From the IMG/VR virus record IMGVR_UViG_2548876964_000023: DNA of 16,522 bases. The stretch is one strand, 5' to 3'. Under the pieces are notes generated by a model, which was not told the DNA's origin, did not search any database, and was given only the letters and a program-made list of their open reading frames with translations. A program made the position numbers and the translations under genes. Shown here in pieces: positions 2,024 through 7,665 of this stretch; the stretch's first letter is position 1; the number at the start of each line of letters is the position of its first letter. Origin of the DNA: a virus. Its lineage: Duplodnaviria; Heunggongvirae; Uroviricota; Caudoviricetes.

Positions 2024-3094
2024 TTACCCCCTGAAGCCCGGCGGAATTTCGTTATCCGGTTCAGAAATATGATTCACACAACGCTGGTTGTTCGTGCCGC
2101 TTACCGGGAGCAACCAGGGGTTCTCAAAATTCCGGTCCGGTCCAAAAAACGTCGTCGCTCGCTGAACAAATTCCGTTCCCGTTTTCCCGGTAGCCGCCAA
2201 GTATCTTGCGTAACGCCTCACGCCATCCAGCATGGCCTCTGGTGGCACCCCCTCGCGTAATCTGGCCTTCCAGGCACTGAAAGCGGATTTCTTCGGGTTT
2301 GCCCCAGCACGCAACGGGTACTCCCGCCAGACCTGTTCGAACACATCCGGATAATCCACTCGTCCCACAGACTGACCGGTGTTTTCCGGGACTACCCGAT
2401 CGGCTTCCCGCTGAATGGCGGAATCGGCTTCAGGCTGCTGAAGTTGGTGTGATTGCTCCTGCCTTGCGGTCATCACCTGCTGCACAGCGCCCGAATCGGC
2501 TTTCAGCGCATACGCTGAATCGGCTTCCGGTGTCGTGCCTGCTGGCTGACCAGGATTGACGGTCTGAACATCCCCTGCCTGGTTCGTGGCGTTTTTTACG
2601 CCATGGACCATAGTGTTTTGATCTTCTTGATCTGTATCTTTATCTGTATCTTTATCTGTCGTGACTCGTCGTGACATGTGCGTGACATTTCGTGACTCGC
2701 CGTGACAATCGCCATTTTGTTCCCGCTTTCTTTCCCTCTCTCGCTGCGCCCTCTTGCGCTCTGCCGGAGATTTTGCGGTTTGCGAAATATTGCCGTTGTC
2801 CTCTTTCAGCACCTGGCGTTTTTCCCATCCAGTGATTAAATCACCATCAAGTACCCGCCCCTGCATCGTCTGCAAAATTGAATCAATTACCTCTTCTGTC
2901 ACGTCGAGCGCACTTGCCAAATCTTCTGTCGTGACATCAATGTGACCTCGCGTGACATTTCGTGACGCGCTCACCAGGAGGTGGATATACACTGCCATCA
3001 CTGTTGCAATTGGCTGCCCTGACACCCTGGCAATTGTTCGCCACTTAGGGTCATTTGGCATGTCATGCCATAATCTGAGCCAGGCGTTAGCCAT
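2024..3094 (-). CDS. Phage replication initiation / replisome-organizer protein (lambda O-like), with an internal acidic TDKD repeat linker
   Basis: N-terminus (M)ANAWLRLWHDMPNDPKWRTIARVSG resembles the N-terminal domain of phage replisome organizers. Position after the Cro-like and CII-like genes matches lambda O. Two iteron arrays lie inside the gene. Start may be GTG 3100 or ATG 3094 (GAGG upstream). Confidence 0.7.
   Translation of the reverse strand: MANAWLRLWHDMPNDPKWRTIARVSGQPIATVMAVYIHLLVSASRNVTRGHIDVTTEDLASALDVTEEVIDSILQTMQGRVLDGDLITGWEKRQVLKEDNGNISQTAKSPAERKRAQRERERKREQNGDCHGESRNVTHMSRRVTTDKDTDKDTDQEDQNTMVHGVKNATNQAGDVQTVNPGQPAGTTPEADSAYALKADSGAVQQVMTARQEQSHQLQQPEADSAIQREADRVVPENTGQSVGRVDYPDVFEQVWREYPLRAGANPKKSAFSAWKARLREGVPPEAMLDGVRRYARYLAATGKTGTEFVQRATTFFGPDRNFENPWLLPVSGTNNQRCVNHISEPDNEIPPGFRG
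2631..2706. repeat. Origin-like repeat block inside the replication gene: tandem 12-bp TCTGTATCTTTA x2, then five CGTGAC iterons at 10-11 bp spacing (2660, 2670, 2681, 2691, 2701)
   Basis: Direct repeats read from the sequence; helical-turn phasing is typical of initiator-binding iterons. Confidence 0.55.
2898..2966. repeat. Second iteron cluster: CGTGAC/TGTGAC at 2930, 2941, 2951, 2961 plus an inverted copy GTCACG at 2898; GCGTGACATTTCGTGAC is duplicated from 2680-2696
   Basis: Direct and inverted repeats read from the sequence. Confidence 0.5.
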
Positions 3095-3165
3095 ACTCAC
3101 CTCTTCTGATACCGAATCTTTTTACTCACGAGTTGCCGGAAGCGATTCGATACGGCTATTGTCAG

Positions 3166-3591
3166 TCAATGTACTGCCACAGCATTTCCTGCCGGGCCAC
3201 CACGGTTCATCTGATTGAAACCGGCGATTGCCACTGCGACAAAATCATCAGCGTCTCTCACCAGTCGCTCCCGCGTCTCCACCAGCTCCCGAAAATAAGC
3301 TGAACTGTGGCTGCGCATTCTGGCCACCAGCAAAGGTGGCATTGCCTTTTCGATCGCTGGTAACAACGCCTGAATTTTTTCAACTGCATCAGGGGTGTCT
3401 TTCTCTACCCAGCGGAAAATTTTCTGGGTATTGCGAGCCAGGGCTTCCGGATGGCTGTCGTCATACAGTTCAGGAAACGTCATACCCAACTCAAAATAAG
3501 CCTGGGTTATTCCAGCTGCTGGAACTTTTTCGCCATCAGGACGCGCCCAGGCATTCATCGCCATGCGGATGTGTTCATGCTTGATTTTCAT
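3166..3591 (-). CDS. YdaT-like (CII-like) prophage regulatory protein (141 aa)
   Basis: N-terminus MKIKHEH... and size match my recollection of the Rac YdaT family; sits immediately downstream of the Cro-like gene with a 17-nt overlap; AGGAG Shine-Dalgarno. Confidence 0.6.
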   Translation of the reverse strand: MKIKHEHIRMAMNAWARPDGEKVPAAGITQAYFELGMTFPELYDDSHPEALARNTQKIFRWVEKDTPDAVEKIQALLPAIEKAMPPLLVARMRSHSSAYFRELVETRERLVRDADDFVAVAIAGFNQMNRGGPAGNAVAVH

Positions 3592-3856
3592 GAATCAAGC
3601 TCCTAGTAAGTGGTTGTGTTAACGTTTTGGTATCTTCCAGCTCGGGCCAAATATTCATCCAATCAAAAGGCCTTAGTTGCTGACGTGTAACTTCACCATT
3701 ACTGGCTCGCTCAATAAGGACACATAACGATGCCCCTAACATTTGACCTTTACTCAATGCCTTTCTTAGATAACCGATGCTAGTACCACACTCACATGCA
3801 AACATACGCTGTTCATCTGACGAAAGAGAATTGAGAAATATTCTTAATTCTTCCAT
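3575..3856 (-). CDS. Cro/YdaS-like HTH transcriptional regulator (93 aa), functional analogue of DicC
   Basis: HTH-like segment CGTSIGYLRKALSKGQ...; AAGGAG Shine-Dalgarno 6-7 nt upstream; divergent from the repressor gene across an operator-containing intergenic region. Confidence 0.65.
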   Translation of the reverse strand: MEELRIFLNSLSSDEQRMFACECGTSIGYLRKALSKGQMLGASLCVLIERASNGEVTRQQLRPFDWMNIWPELEDTKTLTQPLTRSLIHENQA

Positions 3857-3885: not shown

Positions 3886-3920
3886 ACCCACAGGTAAACA
3901 AAAGTCAATACCCTTGGGTT
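3886..3920. promoter_or_regulatory. Operator-like pair between the cro-like and repressor genes: TACCCACAGGTA (3886-3897) and TACCCTTGGGTT (3909-3920), centres 23 bp apart
   Basis: Imperfect inverted repeats sharing the consensus TACCC-NN-GGGTA with the perfect palindromes at 4418-4455. Confidence 0.5.
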
Positions 3921-3955
3921 GTTTACCTTGCGGTAATCGCATCTATTATTTACCT

Positions 3956-4375
3956 ATGGACAAATATGAATTTAGACGACAACAACTCATCAAAATTCGT
4001 GATGAGAAATGCGATGGTAAAGCGGTTAACGTGGCCAGAAAGATCGGTCGCGAGCCTTCTTATGTATCAAGAATGTTGTACCCAGAGGGGAAAAAAGGAA
4101 AAAAACGGATCGCTGATGATATGGTGGAGATTATAGAAGAGTCCTTTGGGTTACCCCGGGGATGGATGGATGGTATCGTTTCATCATCAACGAACACAGC
4201 CTCCAATTATGAAACAAGGGTTCTAACGCCACGACAACGTATTTTTTTAGATCTCTTAGACGAACTGCCAGAAAGTGAAGCGGATAACTTATTAAAAACT
4301 CTTGAAGAGAAAAAACAGTATTACAATATGATCTACGAAGAAATCCGTAAAAAGAAAGCACAAAACGCATCATAA
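3956..4375 (+). CDS. DicA-like prophage repressor (HTH, no peptidase domain); probably translated from a leaderless mRNA
   Basis: Divergent from the cro-like gene. C-terminal LTPRQRIFLDLLDELPESEADNLL resembles my recollection of DicA (…LSPKELELLELFNALPESEQD…). TATTAT at 3944-3949 ends 6 nt before the ATG and there is no Shine-Dalgarno. The TTG at 3914 given in the ORF track is rejected as the start. Confidence 0.65.
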   Translation: MDKYEFRRQQLIKIRDEKCDGKAVNVARKIGREPSYVSRMLYPEGKKGKKRIADDMVEIIEESFGLPRGWMDGIVSSSTNTASNYETRVLTPRQRIFLDLLDELPESEADNLLKTLEEKKQYYNMIYEEIRKKKAQNAS

Positions 4376-4417
4376 CTCACCAAACAACCAGTCACCAGTT
4401 AAGACACATCAAAAAAT

Positions 4418-4455
4418 TACCCATGGGTATTTACTTTTTAAATACCCATGGGTAT
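4418..4455. promoter_or_regulatory. Two perfect palindromic operator-like sites, TACCCATGGGTA at 4418-4429 and ATACCCATGGGTAT at 4442-4455, centres 25 bp apart, upstream of the ydfA-dicF-dicB operon
   Basis: Perfect palindromes read from the sequence; position is analogous to lambda OL/pL. Confidence 0.55.
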
Positions 4456-4640
4456 CCTTCCTTTCATACCAACCCACCCCGTCCCACAGAACGCAGGGCA
4501 ATACTTCGAGTTACCAGGCAGTGGTCAGGGGGTAAGTAGCCAGCCCGAGGCGTAAGAACATGACGGCAGGGTTCAACTTTAATAACTATGCAGCAGGTTT
4601 TTGTTCCGCTACCCCGGCGTTAAGGGGAAATGAGGTCAGC

Positions 4641-4793
4641 ATGGATACTATCGATCTTGGCAACAGCGAATCTCTGGTATGCGGCGTGTTTCCCAACCAG
4701 GACGGTACGTTTACCGCGATGACGTATACCAAAAGTAAAACGTTTAAAACCGAAGCTGGCGCGCATCGCTGGTTAGCAAGAAACTCCGACTGA
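4641..4793 (+). CDS. ydfA: YdfA/YdaF-family small prophage protein (51 aa)
   Basis: MDTIDLGNSESLVCGVFPNQDGTFTAMTYTKSKTFKTEAG... matches my recollection of Qin YdfA; GAGG 7 nt upstream of ATG 4641. The longer ORF from 4560 is rejected. Confidence 0.6.
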   Translation: MDTIDLGNSESLVCGVFPNQDGTFTAMTYTKSKTFKTEAGAHRWLARNSD

Positions 4794-4804
4794 TGAGGTT
4801 GACG

Positions 4805-5443
4805 ATGGAATTTAAAGATTTACCTCCTTCAATCCAGGAGATTGCAGCACACACACTTCGTCATCGTCTGAACGAACTTGAATTGGAATCGGTAACGAAA
4901 AAAGACACTGATAATATGGCTCGTAATGTGCGCGATGCGTTTACCGGATTGTATTTCTGTGCGTCTATAAATAAACACGACTCAGAGAGTGTGGCAAATA
5001 AAATTGCAGAAACGACAGCGCAAAACATCAATACGAAACCAACGGAAGAAGAAATTGATCAGTTTGCTCATGATGCTGGTTTAAAAAACAAGAAAGAAAA
5101 ATCGCCATATGCGGGGAACATGTTTGTTTATGACAATCTCATCAGAATTCGTGGCGAAATTCCGGCGGAATACCTGGCAAGAGTCCATCAGGCATTGCTT
5201 AAAAATTTGGAAACAGAATTATTTGATGGCAACACTAACGGTTTCTTCATGGTATCAGGCCTTGATAAAGACTGGGATGCAGAAAAACGCTGGAATGTTG
5301 CTACATGGTTATTCAGTAACAGAGCCGCTGCACTGGAAGCTTCGGCATGTATTTGCGGCCTGTTCTTAACAGACCACAAATATAATCTGGATGTGTACAG
5401 TTATATTTACGCTGAACACGGTCCACTCTGGATTGACTGGTAA
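4805..5443 (+). CDS. Hypothetical prophage protein (213 aa)
   Basis: ORF with GAGG 6 nt upstream of ATG 4805 (alternative ATG at 4793 overlaps the ydfA stop as TGATG). No recognisable family. Confidence 0.6.
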   Translation: MEFKDLPPSIQEIAAHTLRHRLNELELESVTKKDTDNMARNVRDAFTGLYFCASINKHDSESVANKIAETTAQNINTKPTEEEIDQFAHDAGLKNKKEKSPYAGNMFVYDNLIRIRGEIPAEYLARVHQALLKNLETELFDGNTNGFFMVSGLDKDWDAEKRWNVATWLFSNRAAALEASACICGLFLTDHKYNLDVYSYIYAEHGPLWIDW

Positions 5444-5653: not shown

Positions 5654-5990
5654 TTTATCCTCCATTGAGGTTCTGGGTTAAAAATGGAGACCAACACGCT
5701 GTCACGTGTGGTCGTGCGCCGGACACGGATAAGAATCCGGTACTGACAGTTTACTGAAAGGATATTTCCCTGAAAAGTCAGGGCATAACGCGAAAGCGTA
5801 CGGCGAAGCTCTTTCCCTTAGAAGGCTTGTCGTTAGATTTCTTCGAACGTGCGCTTCCGGTTGTGGCACTCCGCGAAATGGCGCGGCGGTAAGTATGGCG
5901 GGGTTATTCCTTCCCCGTTGAGGACACCGGGTTGTCAGGTTGACCATACGCTTAAGTGACAACCCCGCTGCAACGCCCTCTGTTATCAAT

Positions 5991-6046
5991 TTTCTGGTGA
6001 CGTTTGGCGGTATCAGTTTTACTCCGTGGCTGCTCTGCCGCCCTTT
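5991..6046 (+). ncRNA. dicF: DicF small RNA (Hfq-dependent sRNA that inhibits ftsZ translation), ending in an intrinsic terminator
   Basis: TTTCTGGTGACGTTTGGCGGTATCAGTTTTACTCCGTGGCTGCTCTGCCGCCC followed by TTTTT; near-identical to the DicF sequence as I remember it, and located immediately upstream of dicB as in Qin. Confidence 0.7.
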
Positions 6047-6692: not shown

Positions 6693-7637
6693 ATGAGTAA
6701 AGTCTTTATTTGCGCCGCCATTCCGGACGAACAGGCAATAAAGGAAGAAGGTGCAGTCGCTGTAGCCACTGCCATTGAAGCCGGTGATGAATGTCGCGCC
6801 CGCGCAAAATTTCACTGGCAATTCCTGGAACATTATCCGGCTGCTCAGGACTGCGCTTATAAATTTATTGTCTGCGAGGATAAACCTGGCATACCCCGCC
6901 CTGCCCTCGATTCATGGGATGCTGAATATATGCAGGAAAACCGCTGGGATGAGGAGTCTGCTTCTTTTGTCCCGGTTGAGACTGAATCCTATCCGATGAA
7001 CGTCACTTTTGACAAGCTGGCCCCTGAAGTACAGAACGCTGTCATGGTTAAGTTCGACACATGTGAAAACATCACCGTTGATATGGTTATTAGCGCACAG
7101 GAATTGTTGCAGGAAGACATGGCAACATTCGACGGACATATCGTTGAAGCGTTGATGAAAATGCCAGAAGTTAACACCATGTATCCGGAGCTTAAGTTGC
7201 ACGCCATTGGGTGGGTTAAGCATAAATGTATTCCTGGTGCTAAATGGCCCGAAATTCAGGCAGAGATGCGCATCTGGAAAAAACGTCGCGAAGGTGAACG
7301 CAAGGAAACCGGAAAATACACGTCTGTTGTTGATCTCGCCCGCGCCAGAGCCAATCAACAGTACACTGAAAATTCAACAGGAAAAATCAGCCCGGTCATT
7401 GCTGCCATTCATCGCGAATACAAGCAGACATGGAAAACACTGGATGACGAACTGGCCTACGCTCTCTGGCCTGGTGATGTGGATGCCGGAAACATTGACG
7501 GCAGCATCCATCGCTGGGCAAAAAATGAAGTTATCGACAACGGCCGCGAAGACTGGAAGCGTATCTCGGCATCAATGCGCAAACAGCCTGATGCCCTTCG
7601 CTACGACCGCCAGACTATTTTTTGGCCTTGTCCGTGA
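6693..7637 (+). CDS. YdfE-like prophage protein (314 aa)
   Basis: ORF with GAGG 9 nt upstream; sits where ydfE lies in Qin (dicB-ydfD-ydfE-int). Assigned by synteny, not by sequence recognition. Confidence 0.65.
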   Translation: MSKVFICAAIPDEQAIKEEGAVAVATAIEAGDECRARAKFHWQFLEHYPAAQDCAYKFIVCEDKPGIPRPALDSWDAEYMQENRWDEESASFVPVETESYPMNVTFDKLAPEVQNAVMVKFDTCENITVDMVISAQELLQEDMATFDGHIVEALMKMPEVNTMYPELKLHAIGWVKHKCIPGAKWPEIQAEMRIWKKRREGERKETGKYTSVVDLARARANQQYTENSTGKISPVIAAIHREYKQTWKTLDDELAYALWPGDVDAGNIDGSIHRWAKNEVIDNGREDWKRISASMRKQPDALRYDRQTIFWPCP

Positions 7638-7665
7638 ACGTCCGATCGACATTCACAAAGACCCT

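Follow-up and report, generated by a model that had tools for sequence, protein, structure and literature searches.

A probable theta-type replication origin within the coding sequence of a lambdoid prophage initiator gene

The initiator gene and its repeats

This work concerns a replication initiator gene carried by an integrated lambdoid prophage. The DNA analysed, called here the window, is a stretch of 16,522 nucleotides (nt) from a virus of the Caudoviricetes (IMG/VR record IMGVR_UViG_2548876964_000023). The gene lies on the minus strand at 2024–3094, as defined by its open reading frame (ORF) and translation: the ATG is at 3092–3094, the stop codon is at 2024–2026, and the product has 356 residues. 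The RefSeq coding sequence WP_001262389.1 has identical ends, and the protein matches phrog_3729, 'replication initiation protein', from end to end (E 2e-257). The gene is host to two phased arrays of a hexamer, a single inverted copy of that hexamer, an A-rich tract and an imperfect palindrome. On the basis of the observations described below, we propose, with a probability of about 0.8, that positions 2613–2966 are the phage's theta-type replication origin, located inside the coding sequence of its own initiator. Positions within the gene are given as gene nt, the window position being 3095 minus the gene nt.

The hexamer is CGTGAC on the plus strand, and GTCACG on the sense strand of the gene. 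There are ten exact copies of CGTGAC in the window, nine of which fall within 310 bp of initiator gene sequence; the tenth is at 5701, on the minus strand. An earlier note, made from the letters of this DNA (here the original prediction), had described two clusters of the hexamer inside the gene, and both are present as described. The first, array B (2660–2706, minus strand), has five GTCACG units at gene nt 389, 399, 409, 420 and 430, corresponding to CGTGAC at 2660, 2670, 2681, 2691 and 2701 on the plus strand, with spacings of 10, 11, 10 and 10 bp. The second cluster (2898–2966) was predicted to hold four copies, one of them inverted. It does, and it also contains a further copy with one mismatch, TGTGAC at 2941 (GTCACA on the sense strand, gene nt 149). 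Together with the exact copies at 2930, 2951 and 2961 this completes a phased array, array A (2930–2966, minus strand), of four sense-strand units at gene nt 129, 139, 149 and 160, again with 10–11 bp phasing. The inverted hexamer is at 2898–2903 (gene nt 192–197), and reads GTCACG on the plus strand and CGTGAC on the sense strand. Array B is 260 bp downstream of array A. A 17-mer, GCGTGACATTTCGTGAC, occurs once in each cluster, at 2680 and at 2950, as had been noted.

The original prediction also held that the repeats force repeated peptide motifs, SRNVT and TDKD. Each of these is indeed found twice in the translation, but the CGTGAC copies span all three reading frames, and the hexamer is therefore a repeat of the DNA and not of the peptide. 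When synonymous codons were resampled with the protein sequence held fixed, 1.31 ± 1.03 copies were obtained, with a maximum of 6 in 5000 trials, compared to the 9 observed. The same gene contains a second repeat family, TCGGCTT, at 2400, 2424, 2496 and 2520, the copies lying within a 35-nt direct repeat (2400–2434 and 2496–2530, 74% identical). It codes for repeated (E/K)ADS peptides in a disordered region. Its spacings of 24, 72 and 24 are all multiples of 3, which marks it out as a true peptide repeat, in contrast to the hexamers.

The protein is predicted to consist of a winged-helix N-terminal domain (N-domain, residues 1–95), a basic helix (residues 110–127), a disordered linker (residues 128–205) and a C-terminal domain (C-domain). 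Array A (nt 129–165, codons 43–55) codes for the end of the helix 29–45 and for the loop 46–55 (ASRNVTRGHIDVT), the inverted hexamer codes for the turn of the helix-turn-helix (D64-V65-T66), and array B codes for part of the disordered linker (codons 130–145). Both arrays thus map to loop or disordered segments in the AlphaFold2 model, and the DNA elements occupy those parts of the protein that best tolerate a constraint on sequence.

No match to the consensus of a DnaA box (TTWTNCACA) or of an IHF site (WATCAANNNNTTR) was found within 2400–3100. To our knowledge such sites are not a universal requirement of origins, and lambda ori has no essential DnaA box.

Distribution and conservation of the arrays

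About 60 diverse homologues were collected by tblastn with the N-domain against phage genomes, and by a scan of one genome per bacterial species. Each gene was then searched without reference to a given motif, by identifying, on each strand separately, the hexamer for which the largest number of copies had another copy 10–11 bp away. About 50 of the 60 homologues, from many genera, have 5–9 phased copies in two arrays, at about +130–165 nt and about +340–450 nt, the second array being 190–270 bp beyond the first. In 368 control windows from the same loci, the best phased count was never greater than 2. The original prediction had stated that absence of the repeats from homologues would count against it: most of the family retains both arrays, while a minority is without clear ones. 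The array A positions 129/139/149/160 recur in Pseudomonas, Aeromonas, Bordetella, Serratia and other genera. Many genes with the GTCACG hexamer also have the inverted copy at nt 192, and genes with the hexamer GCAACG have inverted GCAACG copies at nt 171 and 201. A scan of viral contigs with the N-domain alignment returned only near-identical copies from Escherichia coli, which were used to look at variation within that species.

The hexamer is not identical in all the species. There are six classes, all of the form NNNACG, which track the lineage of the N-domain, and it is striking that arrays A and B always have the same hexamer within a gene. GTCACG is found in E. coli, Shigella, E. albertii, Serratia, Rahnella and Bordetella, and also in Aquitalea, Chromobacterium, Acidovorax, Pseudomonas and Aeromonas. 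GTAACG is found in Pantoea, Enterobacter, Marinobacter and Sphingomonas; GTGACG in two Pseudomonas genomes and one unclassified Pseudomonadota metagenome-assembled genome; GCAACG in Ralstonia phage Hennie, Cupriavidus and Burkholderia; CGAACG(C) in many beta- and alphaproteobacteria; and GGAACG in Novosphingobium. Pseudomonas alone has three of the classes, which makes it unlikely that a host protein binds the hexamer. Within one class, phages of E. coli, Pseudomonas and Aeromonas have different genes flanking the initiator, and this leaves the N-domain as the only shared candidate for the binder.

The hexamers are constrained at the level of DNA. In 23 ungapped genes of the GTCACG class, with a mean pairwise nucleotide identity of 0.70, third-codon positions are conserved at 0.93 within the hexamers and at 0.54 elsewhere (p = 4e-6). 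Copy number shifts by 21 nt, which is two units and also seven codons, as seen in E. albertii (L088) and E. coli (L147). In the GTAACG class a TAA stop codon would arise in one of the frames, and the GTAACG-class arrays of L107 and L109 have a spacing of 21 bp, so that the frame is preserved.

Two further genes, L126 (Serratia) and L136 (Pantoea), are organised differently. At about nt 320–470 the N-domain is fused to a GIY-YIG-like segment (YVYYV...GISxNPWAR). These genes have 3–4 ACTACG repeats with a spacing of 9–11 bp, and have neither array A nor the GATA-containing tract described in the next section.

The A-rich tract and the adjoining palindrome

Array B is followed by an A-rich, purine-biased tract at 2613–2659 (minus strand; gene nt 436–482), with the sense sequence AGATAAAGATACAGATAAAGATACAGATCAAGAAGATCAAAACAC, which is a candidate DNA-unwinding element. 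It is located inside the coding sequence of the disordered linker, has 30% GC compared to 54% for the gene, and includes the GC minimum of the gene, at gene nt 440. The tandem 12-mer reported in the original prediction at 2631–2654, TCTGTATCTTTA, is found within it at 2631 and 2643; Tandem Repeats Finder extends this array to 2625–2659, with a period of 12, 2.9 copies and 95% matches.

The position and composition of the tract are conserved. In 48 of 52 homologues, the 40-nt window of lowest GC in the gene starts between –10 and +40 nt from the end of array B, with a median of +3. The GC content of the tract in homologues is 0.36, compared to 0.56 for the genes (p = 3.5e-10), and its sense strand is 70% purine. 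In every hexamer class the tract has the form (AGATAA/AGATAC/AGAGAA)n, although the hosts range from 42% to 68% GC. The density of the motif AGATA[AC] is 46.5 per kb in the tract, about 270-fold higher than in the remainder of the genes (0.17 per kb).

Codon choice within the tract indicates that this is not simply a matter of base composition. Asp is encoded by GAT and GAC in a ratio of 157:13 in the tract, compared to 433:554 elsewhere (odds ratio 15, p = 7e-36). The use of ACA for Thr is similarly skewed (odds ratio 16, p = 6e-35), as is that of AAA for Lys (odds ratio 3.9), whereas Glu shows no skew between GAA and GAG. The codon choices that generate GATA[AC]A are enforced even in genes of 58–68% GC. 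The skew for Asp, Thr and Lys without one for Glu points to selection on the GATA[A/C]A sequence itself, beyond AT content. The tandem 12-mer belongs to the DNA element that is most highly conserved in this family, and this element is likely to serve in unwinding.

The tract is adjoined, on the side coding for the C-domain, by an imperfect palindrome at 2580–2610 with 13-nt arms and a 5-nt loop (inverted repeat I2). It belongs to the exchangeable C-domain module, outside the conserved N-terminal module, and its role is uncertain. On the plus strand it is followed by a run of T, and it scores as terminator-like on this strand, which is antisense to the gene. Predictions of internal promoters and terminators in the region gave counts equal to those for shuffled sequence; this palindrome, on the antisense strand, was the only element that scored. 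Three homologues from different hexamer classes (L089, L103 and L131) have a hairpin-like sequence, CCnACC-TCACTACGTTC-GGTnGG, directly after the A-rich tract. Several others have CCCCCCTTnCCCCCC at the same place. Both sequences could be DNA elements, or else the start of common C-domains.

The initiator protein

An AlphaFold2 model of the initiator was built on 56 homologues. The winged helix (residues 1–95) is predicted with confidence, the predicted local distance difference test (pLDDT) score being above 90 at residues 11–90. It is predicted to have helices at 3–14, 16–25 and 29–45, a loop at 46–55, a helix-turn-helix at 56–77 and a β-hairpin at 78–87. The C-domain, which is variable across the family, is modelled as helical with moderate confidence. 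Fold searches with the full-length model against the PDB and a library of viral structures gave only generic winged-helix regulators (MarR, ArsR, GntR and Rex), none of them significant, and no structural match to plasmid Rep proteins. These searches support the fold class without identifying a closer relative.

The relationship of this protein to known initiators is distant. The original prediction called the gene O-like. It is a replication initiator, as shown by the match to phrog_3729, but it has no sequence relationship to lambda O: there is no match in Pfam at E ≤ 0.01, and none to Phage_rep_O, the lambda O family, even at E ≤ 10. Comparison of the family profile gave a probability of 0.06% with lambda O (hhalign) and of 0.1% with SPP1 G38P, although both are weak tests, the template being a single sequence in each case. 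Phage_rep_org_N (PF09681) gives a match over the full length of the profile that falls below threshold (E 0.01, 16.2 bits, cut-off 23.3), and TIGR01714 likewise gives a full-length match below threshold (E 0.015, 15.5 bits, cut-off 49.8). Two PHROG families named 'replisome organizer' match at E 6.6e-6 and 1e-4, and NCBI names many homologues 'phage replisome organizer'. By these comparisons the protein is classed as a winged-helix initiator that is not a homologue of lambda O, with a weak, sub-threshold likeness to the N-domain of SPP1-type replisome organizers.

The last 24 residues (codons 333–356, window 2027–2098) are similar to the C-terminal end of DnaT, a primosomal protein of the host, with matches to PDB entries 6aep, 2ru8 and 9zbt (E 0.003–0.07) and to NCBIfam NF002770 (E 7e-4). 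In view of this DnaT-like tail, and of the lack of a P-like or DnaC-like loader gene next to the initiator, the phage may borrow the replication-restart primosome of its host.

Recombinant genes

Partial BLAST matches to the initiator gene break at window positions 2619–2637, and recombinant genes in E. coli have their junctions at gene nt 459–507, at the A-rich tract. Two of these are informative. Recombinant L147 has kept the N-terminal half and both GTCACG arrays, and diverges from about gene nt 459, inside the tract; its C-terminal half is a DnaT domain (PF17948), and is followed by a P-like gene. Recombinant L148 (E. coli 2009C_3996; reverse strand 1499–2614) is the converse. Its N-terminal half has no detectable similarity to the initiator family, and it rejoins the C-terminal half of the window gene at about nt 477–507, with a DnaC-like gene next.

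L148 has a repeat of its own, the 9-mer AAGGGGCTT, at gene nt 185 and 196 and at 441, 452 and 463, that is, in two arrays with 11-bp phasing that are 256 bp apart. Its tract is also different, being (CAGGAA)n. Since this is found with an unrelated N-terminal half, the GATA motif belongs to the N-domain family of the window. The junctions in L147 and L148 show that N-domain, arrays and tract are inherited together as one unit, the tract being the point of exchange. The genes of lambdoid O proteins show the same modular exchange. Judging from the repeats in L148, two arrays may be a wider rule among the initiators of enterobacterial prophages.

A model for the origin, and alternatives

The original prediction was that the origin lies within its own initiator gene, as in lambda. 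This is strongly supported by the two-array layout in about 50 of 60 homologues, by the co-variation of the hexamer with the N-domain, by the codon conservation and by the position of the tract, which is where lambda and SPP1 have their unwinding elements. From these sequence features we infer that the initiator binds the arrays, that the tract melts and that the origin fires, and we offer the following model. The N-terminal winged-helix domain would bind the GTCACG units, the spacing of one helical turn placing all of them on the same face of the DNA. Both arrays would be filled cooperatively, perhaps with a bridge between them over about 25 helical turns, and the resulting distortion of the DNA would open the adjacent tract of GATA[A/C]A repeats. 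The conservation of tract sequence, beyond AT content, suggests that the initiator may hold one strand of the tract in a sequence-specific manner, in the way that the loop-back model proposes for plasmid Rep proteins. The interchangeable C-domain would then recruit the machinery for loading the helicase, in this phage perhaps via the DnaT-like tail.

A number of observations weigh against this model. In the window, no P-like or DnaC-like helicase loader follows the initiator, the next gene encoding a DUF977 protein. The putative recognition helix is acidic, and is variable inside one hexamer class, and so gives no clear picture of how the hexamer is read. Some of the conservation of the tract could be at the peptide level, as the Asp-Lys frame accounts for about 88% of its GATA[AC]A copies. 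Three homologues (L113, L115 and L125) have kept the tract with at most 1–2 degenerate units, and the Microcystis phage L005 has neither arrays nor tract. The hexamers make up 11.5% of the length and contain 4 of the 32 sites that vary among 29 haplotypes from E. coli, which gives no sign of extra constraint at this depth. Finally, array A is inside the coding sequence of the N-domain, and their co-inheritance is physically forced; the independent evidence is therefore confined to the match of hexamer between arrays A and B, together with the position of array B in the linker.

A different explanation is that the arrays are regulatory sites, and that replication starts elsewhere. The initiator, or another protein of the phage, might bind there so as to block transcription of the gene (autoregulation), or so as to pair copies in the manner of plasmid copy control. 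Plasmid initiators commonly autoregulate via their iterons. Array A, moreover, starts a mere 129 nt from the beginning of the gene, in the coding sequence of the DNA-binding domain, a place where repeats are absent from both lambda and SPP1, and the few homologues without arrays imply that arrays in the gene are not strictly required. We nevertheless consider this unlikely: an array B followed by the AT minimum in 48 of 52 genes is the grammar of iterons plus unwinding element, at the position that it has in lambda and SPP1, and the window showed no other cluster of repeats at which replication might start. Regulation is in any case compatible with an origin at 2613–2966, as array A could do both jobs. 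It is much harder to argue that the repeats are a by-product of the repeated peptides SRNVT and TDKD, or of intragenic duplication, with no function as DNA. These peptides are present, the linker is disordered and of low complexity, and the Asp-Lys frame of most GATA[AC]A copies fits such an origin for the tract. However, the hexamers are in all three frames and synonymous resampling never reaches the observed count; the third-codon positions and the choice of Asp, Thr and Lys codons are constrained far beyond the needs of the protein; and the phasing of 10–11 bp is not a multiple of 3, whereas the TCGGCTT repeat of the same gene is in frame. This makes a by-product highly improbable.

An even smaller chance is given to the repeats acting in the mRNA, as an RNA structure or a protein site, or as a parC-type partition centromere bound by a ParR-like protein. 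All the direct copies are on the sense strand, and the inverted copy could pair with them; the parC site of plasmid R1 has two sets of phased short repeats. Against this, the sense transcript of 2600–2980 folds no better than shuffled sequence (z = –0.19), no Rfam family matches in the region, and a spacing of one helical turn has no rationale in RNA. As for partition, the element is an integrated prophage of the lambdoid type, and it lacks partition genes.

A further possibility concerns the reading of the variable first three bases of NNNACG. The loop encoded by array A is the part of the N-domain that differs most between hexamer classes, and outside this loop no residue, including those of the helix-turn-helix helices, sorted cleanly by hexamer class. 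It is conceivable that the loop helps to read these bases, in which case the site and its reader would be in the same nucleotides. We regard this as quite improbable, but it would have consequences. Slippage, or gene conversion between units, would then change the repeats in concert, and with them both the binding site and the element that determines specificity; new and mutually orthogonal pairs of origin and initiator could thereby arise in a single step. This would explain the split into at least six hexamer classes with a single invariant unwinding tract.

Gene neighbourhood, distribution and other features of the window

The order of the genes is that of a lambdoid or Rac-type early operon, namely cro, cII-like, initiator. 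A divergent repressor gene is at 3914–4375, a Cro/YdaS-like gene at 3575–3856 (minus strand) and a CII/YdaT-like gene at 3166–3591 (minus strand). On the minus strand after the initiator there are genes for DUF977 (the next gene), then DUF4406, and then Ead/Ea22.

The initiator gene is 98–99% identical in seven deposited genomes of E. coli phages, and at least 80% of its length is found in 1,647 of 5,426 complete E. coli genomes. It is also carried by temperate phages of Pseudomonas, Aeromonas, Bordetella, Burkholderia, Ralstonia and others. The RefSeq name is mostly 'hypothetical protein', and none of the records examined for the family has an annotated origin. In two records the initiator ORF has not been called: Pseudomonas phage phi1 (KT887557; L001 2501–3400) and CP137943 (L151 about 4001–4900), which is labelled as a plasmid. 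CP137943 and CP124671 are both deposited as 50.9-kb circular plasmids of P. aeruginosa, and hold the same initiator gene. The one examined, CP137943, resembles a phage episome and is without a recognised plasmid replicon. As natural proof of autonomous replication, the episome-like appearance of these two 'plasmids' is suggestive without being decisive.

The remainder of the window contains several other features. A DicF antisense small RNA (Rfam RF00039, 75 bits) is at 5992–6043 on the plus strand, in the prophage early-left region, as in E. coli prophages of the Qin/Kim type. An ORF with an integrase C-terminal domain (7207–9081) is beside a tRNA-Ser(CGA) gene (9134–9223, minus strand), and a P4-type integrase gene (10404–11744) is beside a tRNA-Asn(GTT) gene (10215–10290); between these two pairs is a gene for an mtfA-like M90 peptidase (9278–10114). 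The region 7207–11744 looks like a prophage end abutting a second integrated island. A SMODS nucleotidyltransferase gene (12768–13763) is followed by a SMODS-associated 4TM effector that is split in two (13767–14039 and 14098–14433); 12768–14433 has the appearance of a CBASS-like defence pair whose effector is disrupted. Lastly, a shufflon-type PilV-like gene (Shufflon_N; 14794–16170, minus strand) adjoins a transposase fragment with rve integrase-core domains (16136–16501, minus strand).

Implications

That an initiator gene can contain an origin, complete with iterons and an unwinding element, is textbook knowledge for lambda and established for SPP1. The present work extends this arrangement to another family, and overturns nothing. 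Features that could be variants are the presence of two arrays, one of them in the coding sequence of the DNA-binding domain, the NNNACG specificity classes, and the GATA[A/C]A tract that is conserved in sequence. No description of an origin for this initiator family was found in the literature on iterons in replisome-organizer genes or on the replication units ('Eru') of Stx phages, nor under the motifs themselves, although an older one is possible, since subscription journals were thinly covered.

With these results, the origins of this family could be annotated by a simple rule, namely a pair of phased NNNACG arrays with a GATA[AC]A tract after them. They also imply that synonymous recoding or codon optimisation of the initiator gene would destroy a cis-acting element. 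The hexamer classes offer natural, and possibly orthogonal, pairs of initiator and iteron for the construction of compatible replicons. The tract, being conserved across all of the classes, makes a case for testing whether unwinding elements are read in a sequence-specific manner.

Comparison with known origins

The original prediction suggested a comparison with the ori regions of related lambdoid phages. In lambda and in the window, iterons and then the GC minimum are found at matching positions in the gene. Gene O of lambda has four iterons at nt 349–433 and a GC minimum at nt 436, followed by a palindrome, while the initiator gene of the window has array B at nt 389–435 and a GC minimum at nt 440, with the palindrome at 2580–2610 just past the tract. 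The lambda origin and the one proposed for the window are both in the middle of the initiator gene, in the part coding for the linker; in both, the tract following the repeats is A-rich with a purine bias on the sense strand, and the operon has the order cro, cII-like, initiator. Lambda O is itself modular: its two halves are exchanged by recombination, the N-domain being responsible for iteron binding and the C-domain for contact with the helicase loader. There are also clear differences. The lambda iterons are 18 bp long, dyad-symmetric and 20–24 bp apart, whereas the units in the window are asymmetric, of 6–7 bp, with a spacing of 10–11 bp and in two arrays 260 bp apart; and the two proteins are not detectably homologous.

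Gene 38 of SPP1 provides a second comparison. It has direct repeats with 11-bp phasing at nt 357–410 and a GC minimum at nt 412. G38P binds an oriL segment of 356 bp, and this segment suffices for replication in vitro that depends on the initiator (PMC5737612, PMC6316719). Like the origin proposed for the window, that of SPP1 is inside the gene for its initiator, directly beyond the part coding for the N-terminal DNA-binding domain, and direct repeats spaced by about one helical turn are followed by the AT minimum of the gene, which in SPP1 is the unwinding element (PMC5737612, PMC6316719). A further point of likeness is that the initiator has no AAA+ domain, the helicase loader and helicase being recruited afterwards. 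Annotators and the Pfam and TIGRFAM matches, which fall below threshold, link the N-domain of the window protein to Phage_rep_org_N, whereas the profile comparison with the single G38P sequence showed no similarity. SPP1 has no second array in the coding sequence of the N-domain and instead has a distant second origin, oriR; its repeats are of two alternating box types, where the window has a single hexamer; its AT-rich tract is (AACAATGAT)n in place of GATA[AC]A; and its hosts are Firmicutes, as opposed to the Proteobacteria of the window family. A second, upstream array inside the coding sequence of the DNA-binding domain is thus found in the window family, and in neither lambda nor SPP1.

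The iteron plasmids RK2 and F are less similar in organisation. Their iterons are of 17–22 bp, in non-coding DNA and usually accompanied by DnaA boxes, and their Rep proteins have two winged-helix domains, unlike the initiator of the window. The winged-helix initiators TrfA and RepE bind direct repeats beside an AT-rich unwinding element that has repeats of its own, and in the loop-back model the initiator binds one strand of that element in a sequence-specific manner (PMC10602881). Strand binding of this kind, as by TrfA of RK2 and RepE of F, could explain why the GATA[AC]A tract is conserved in sequence, beyond its AT content.

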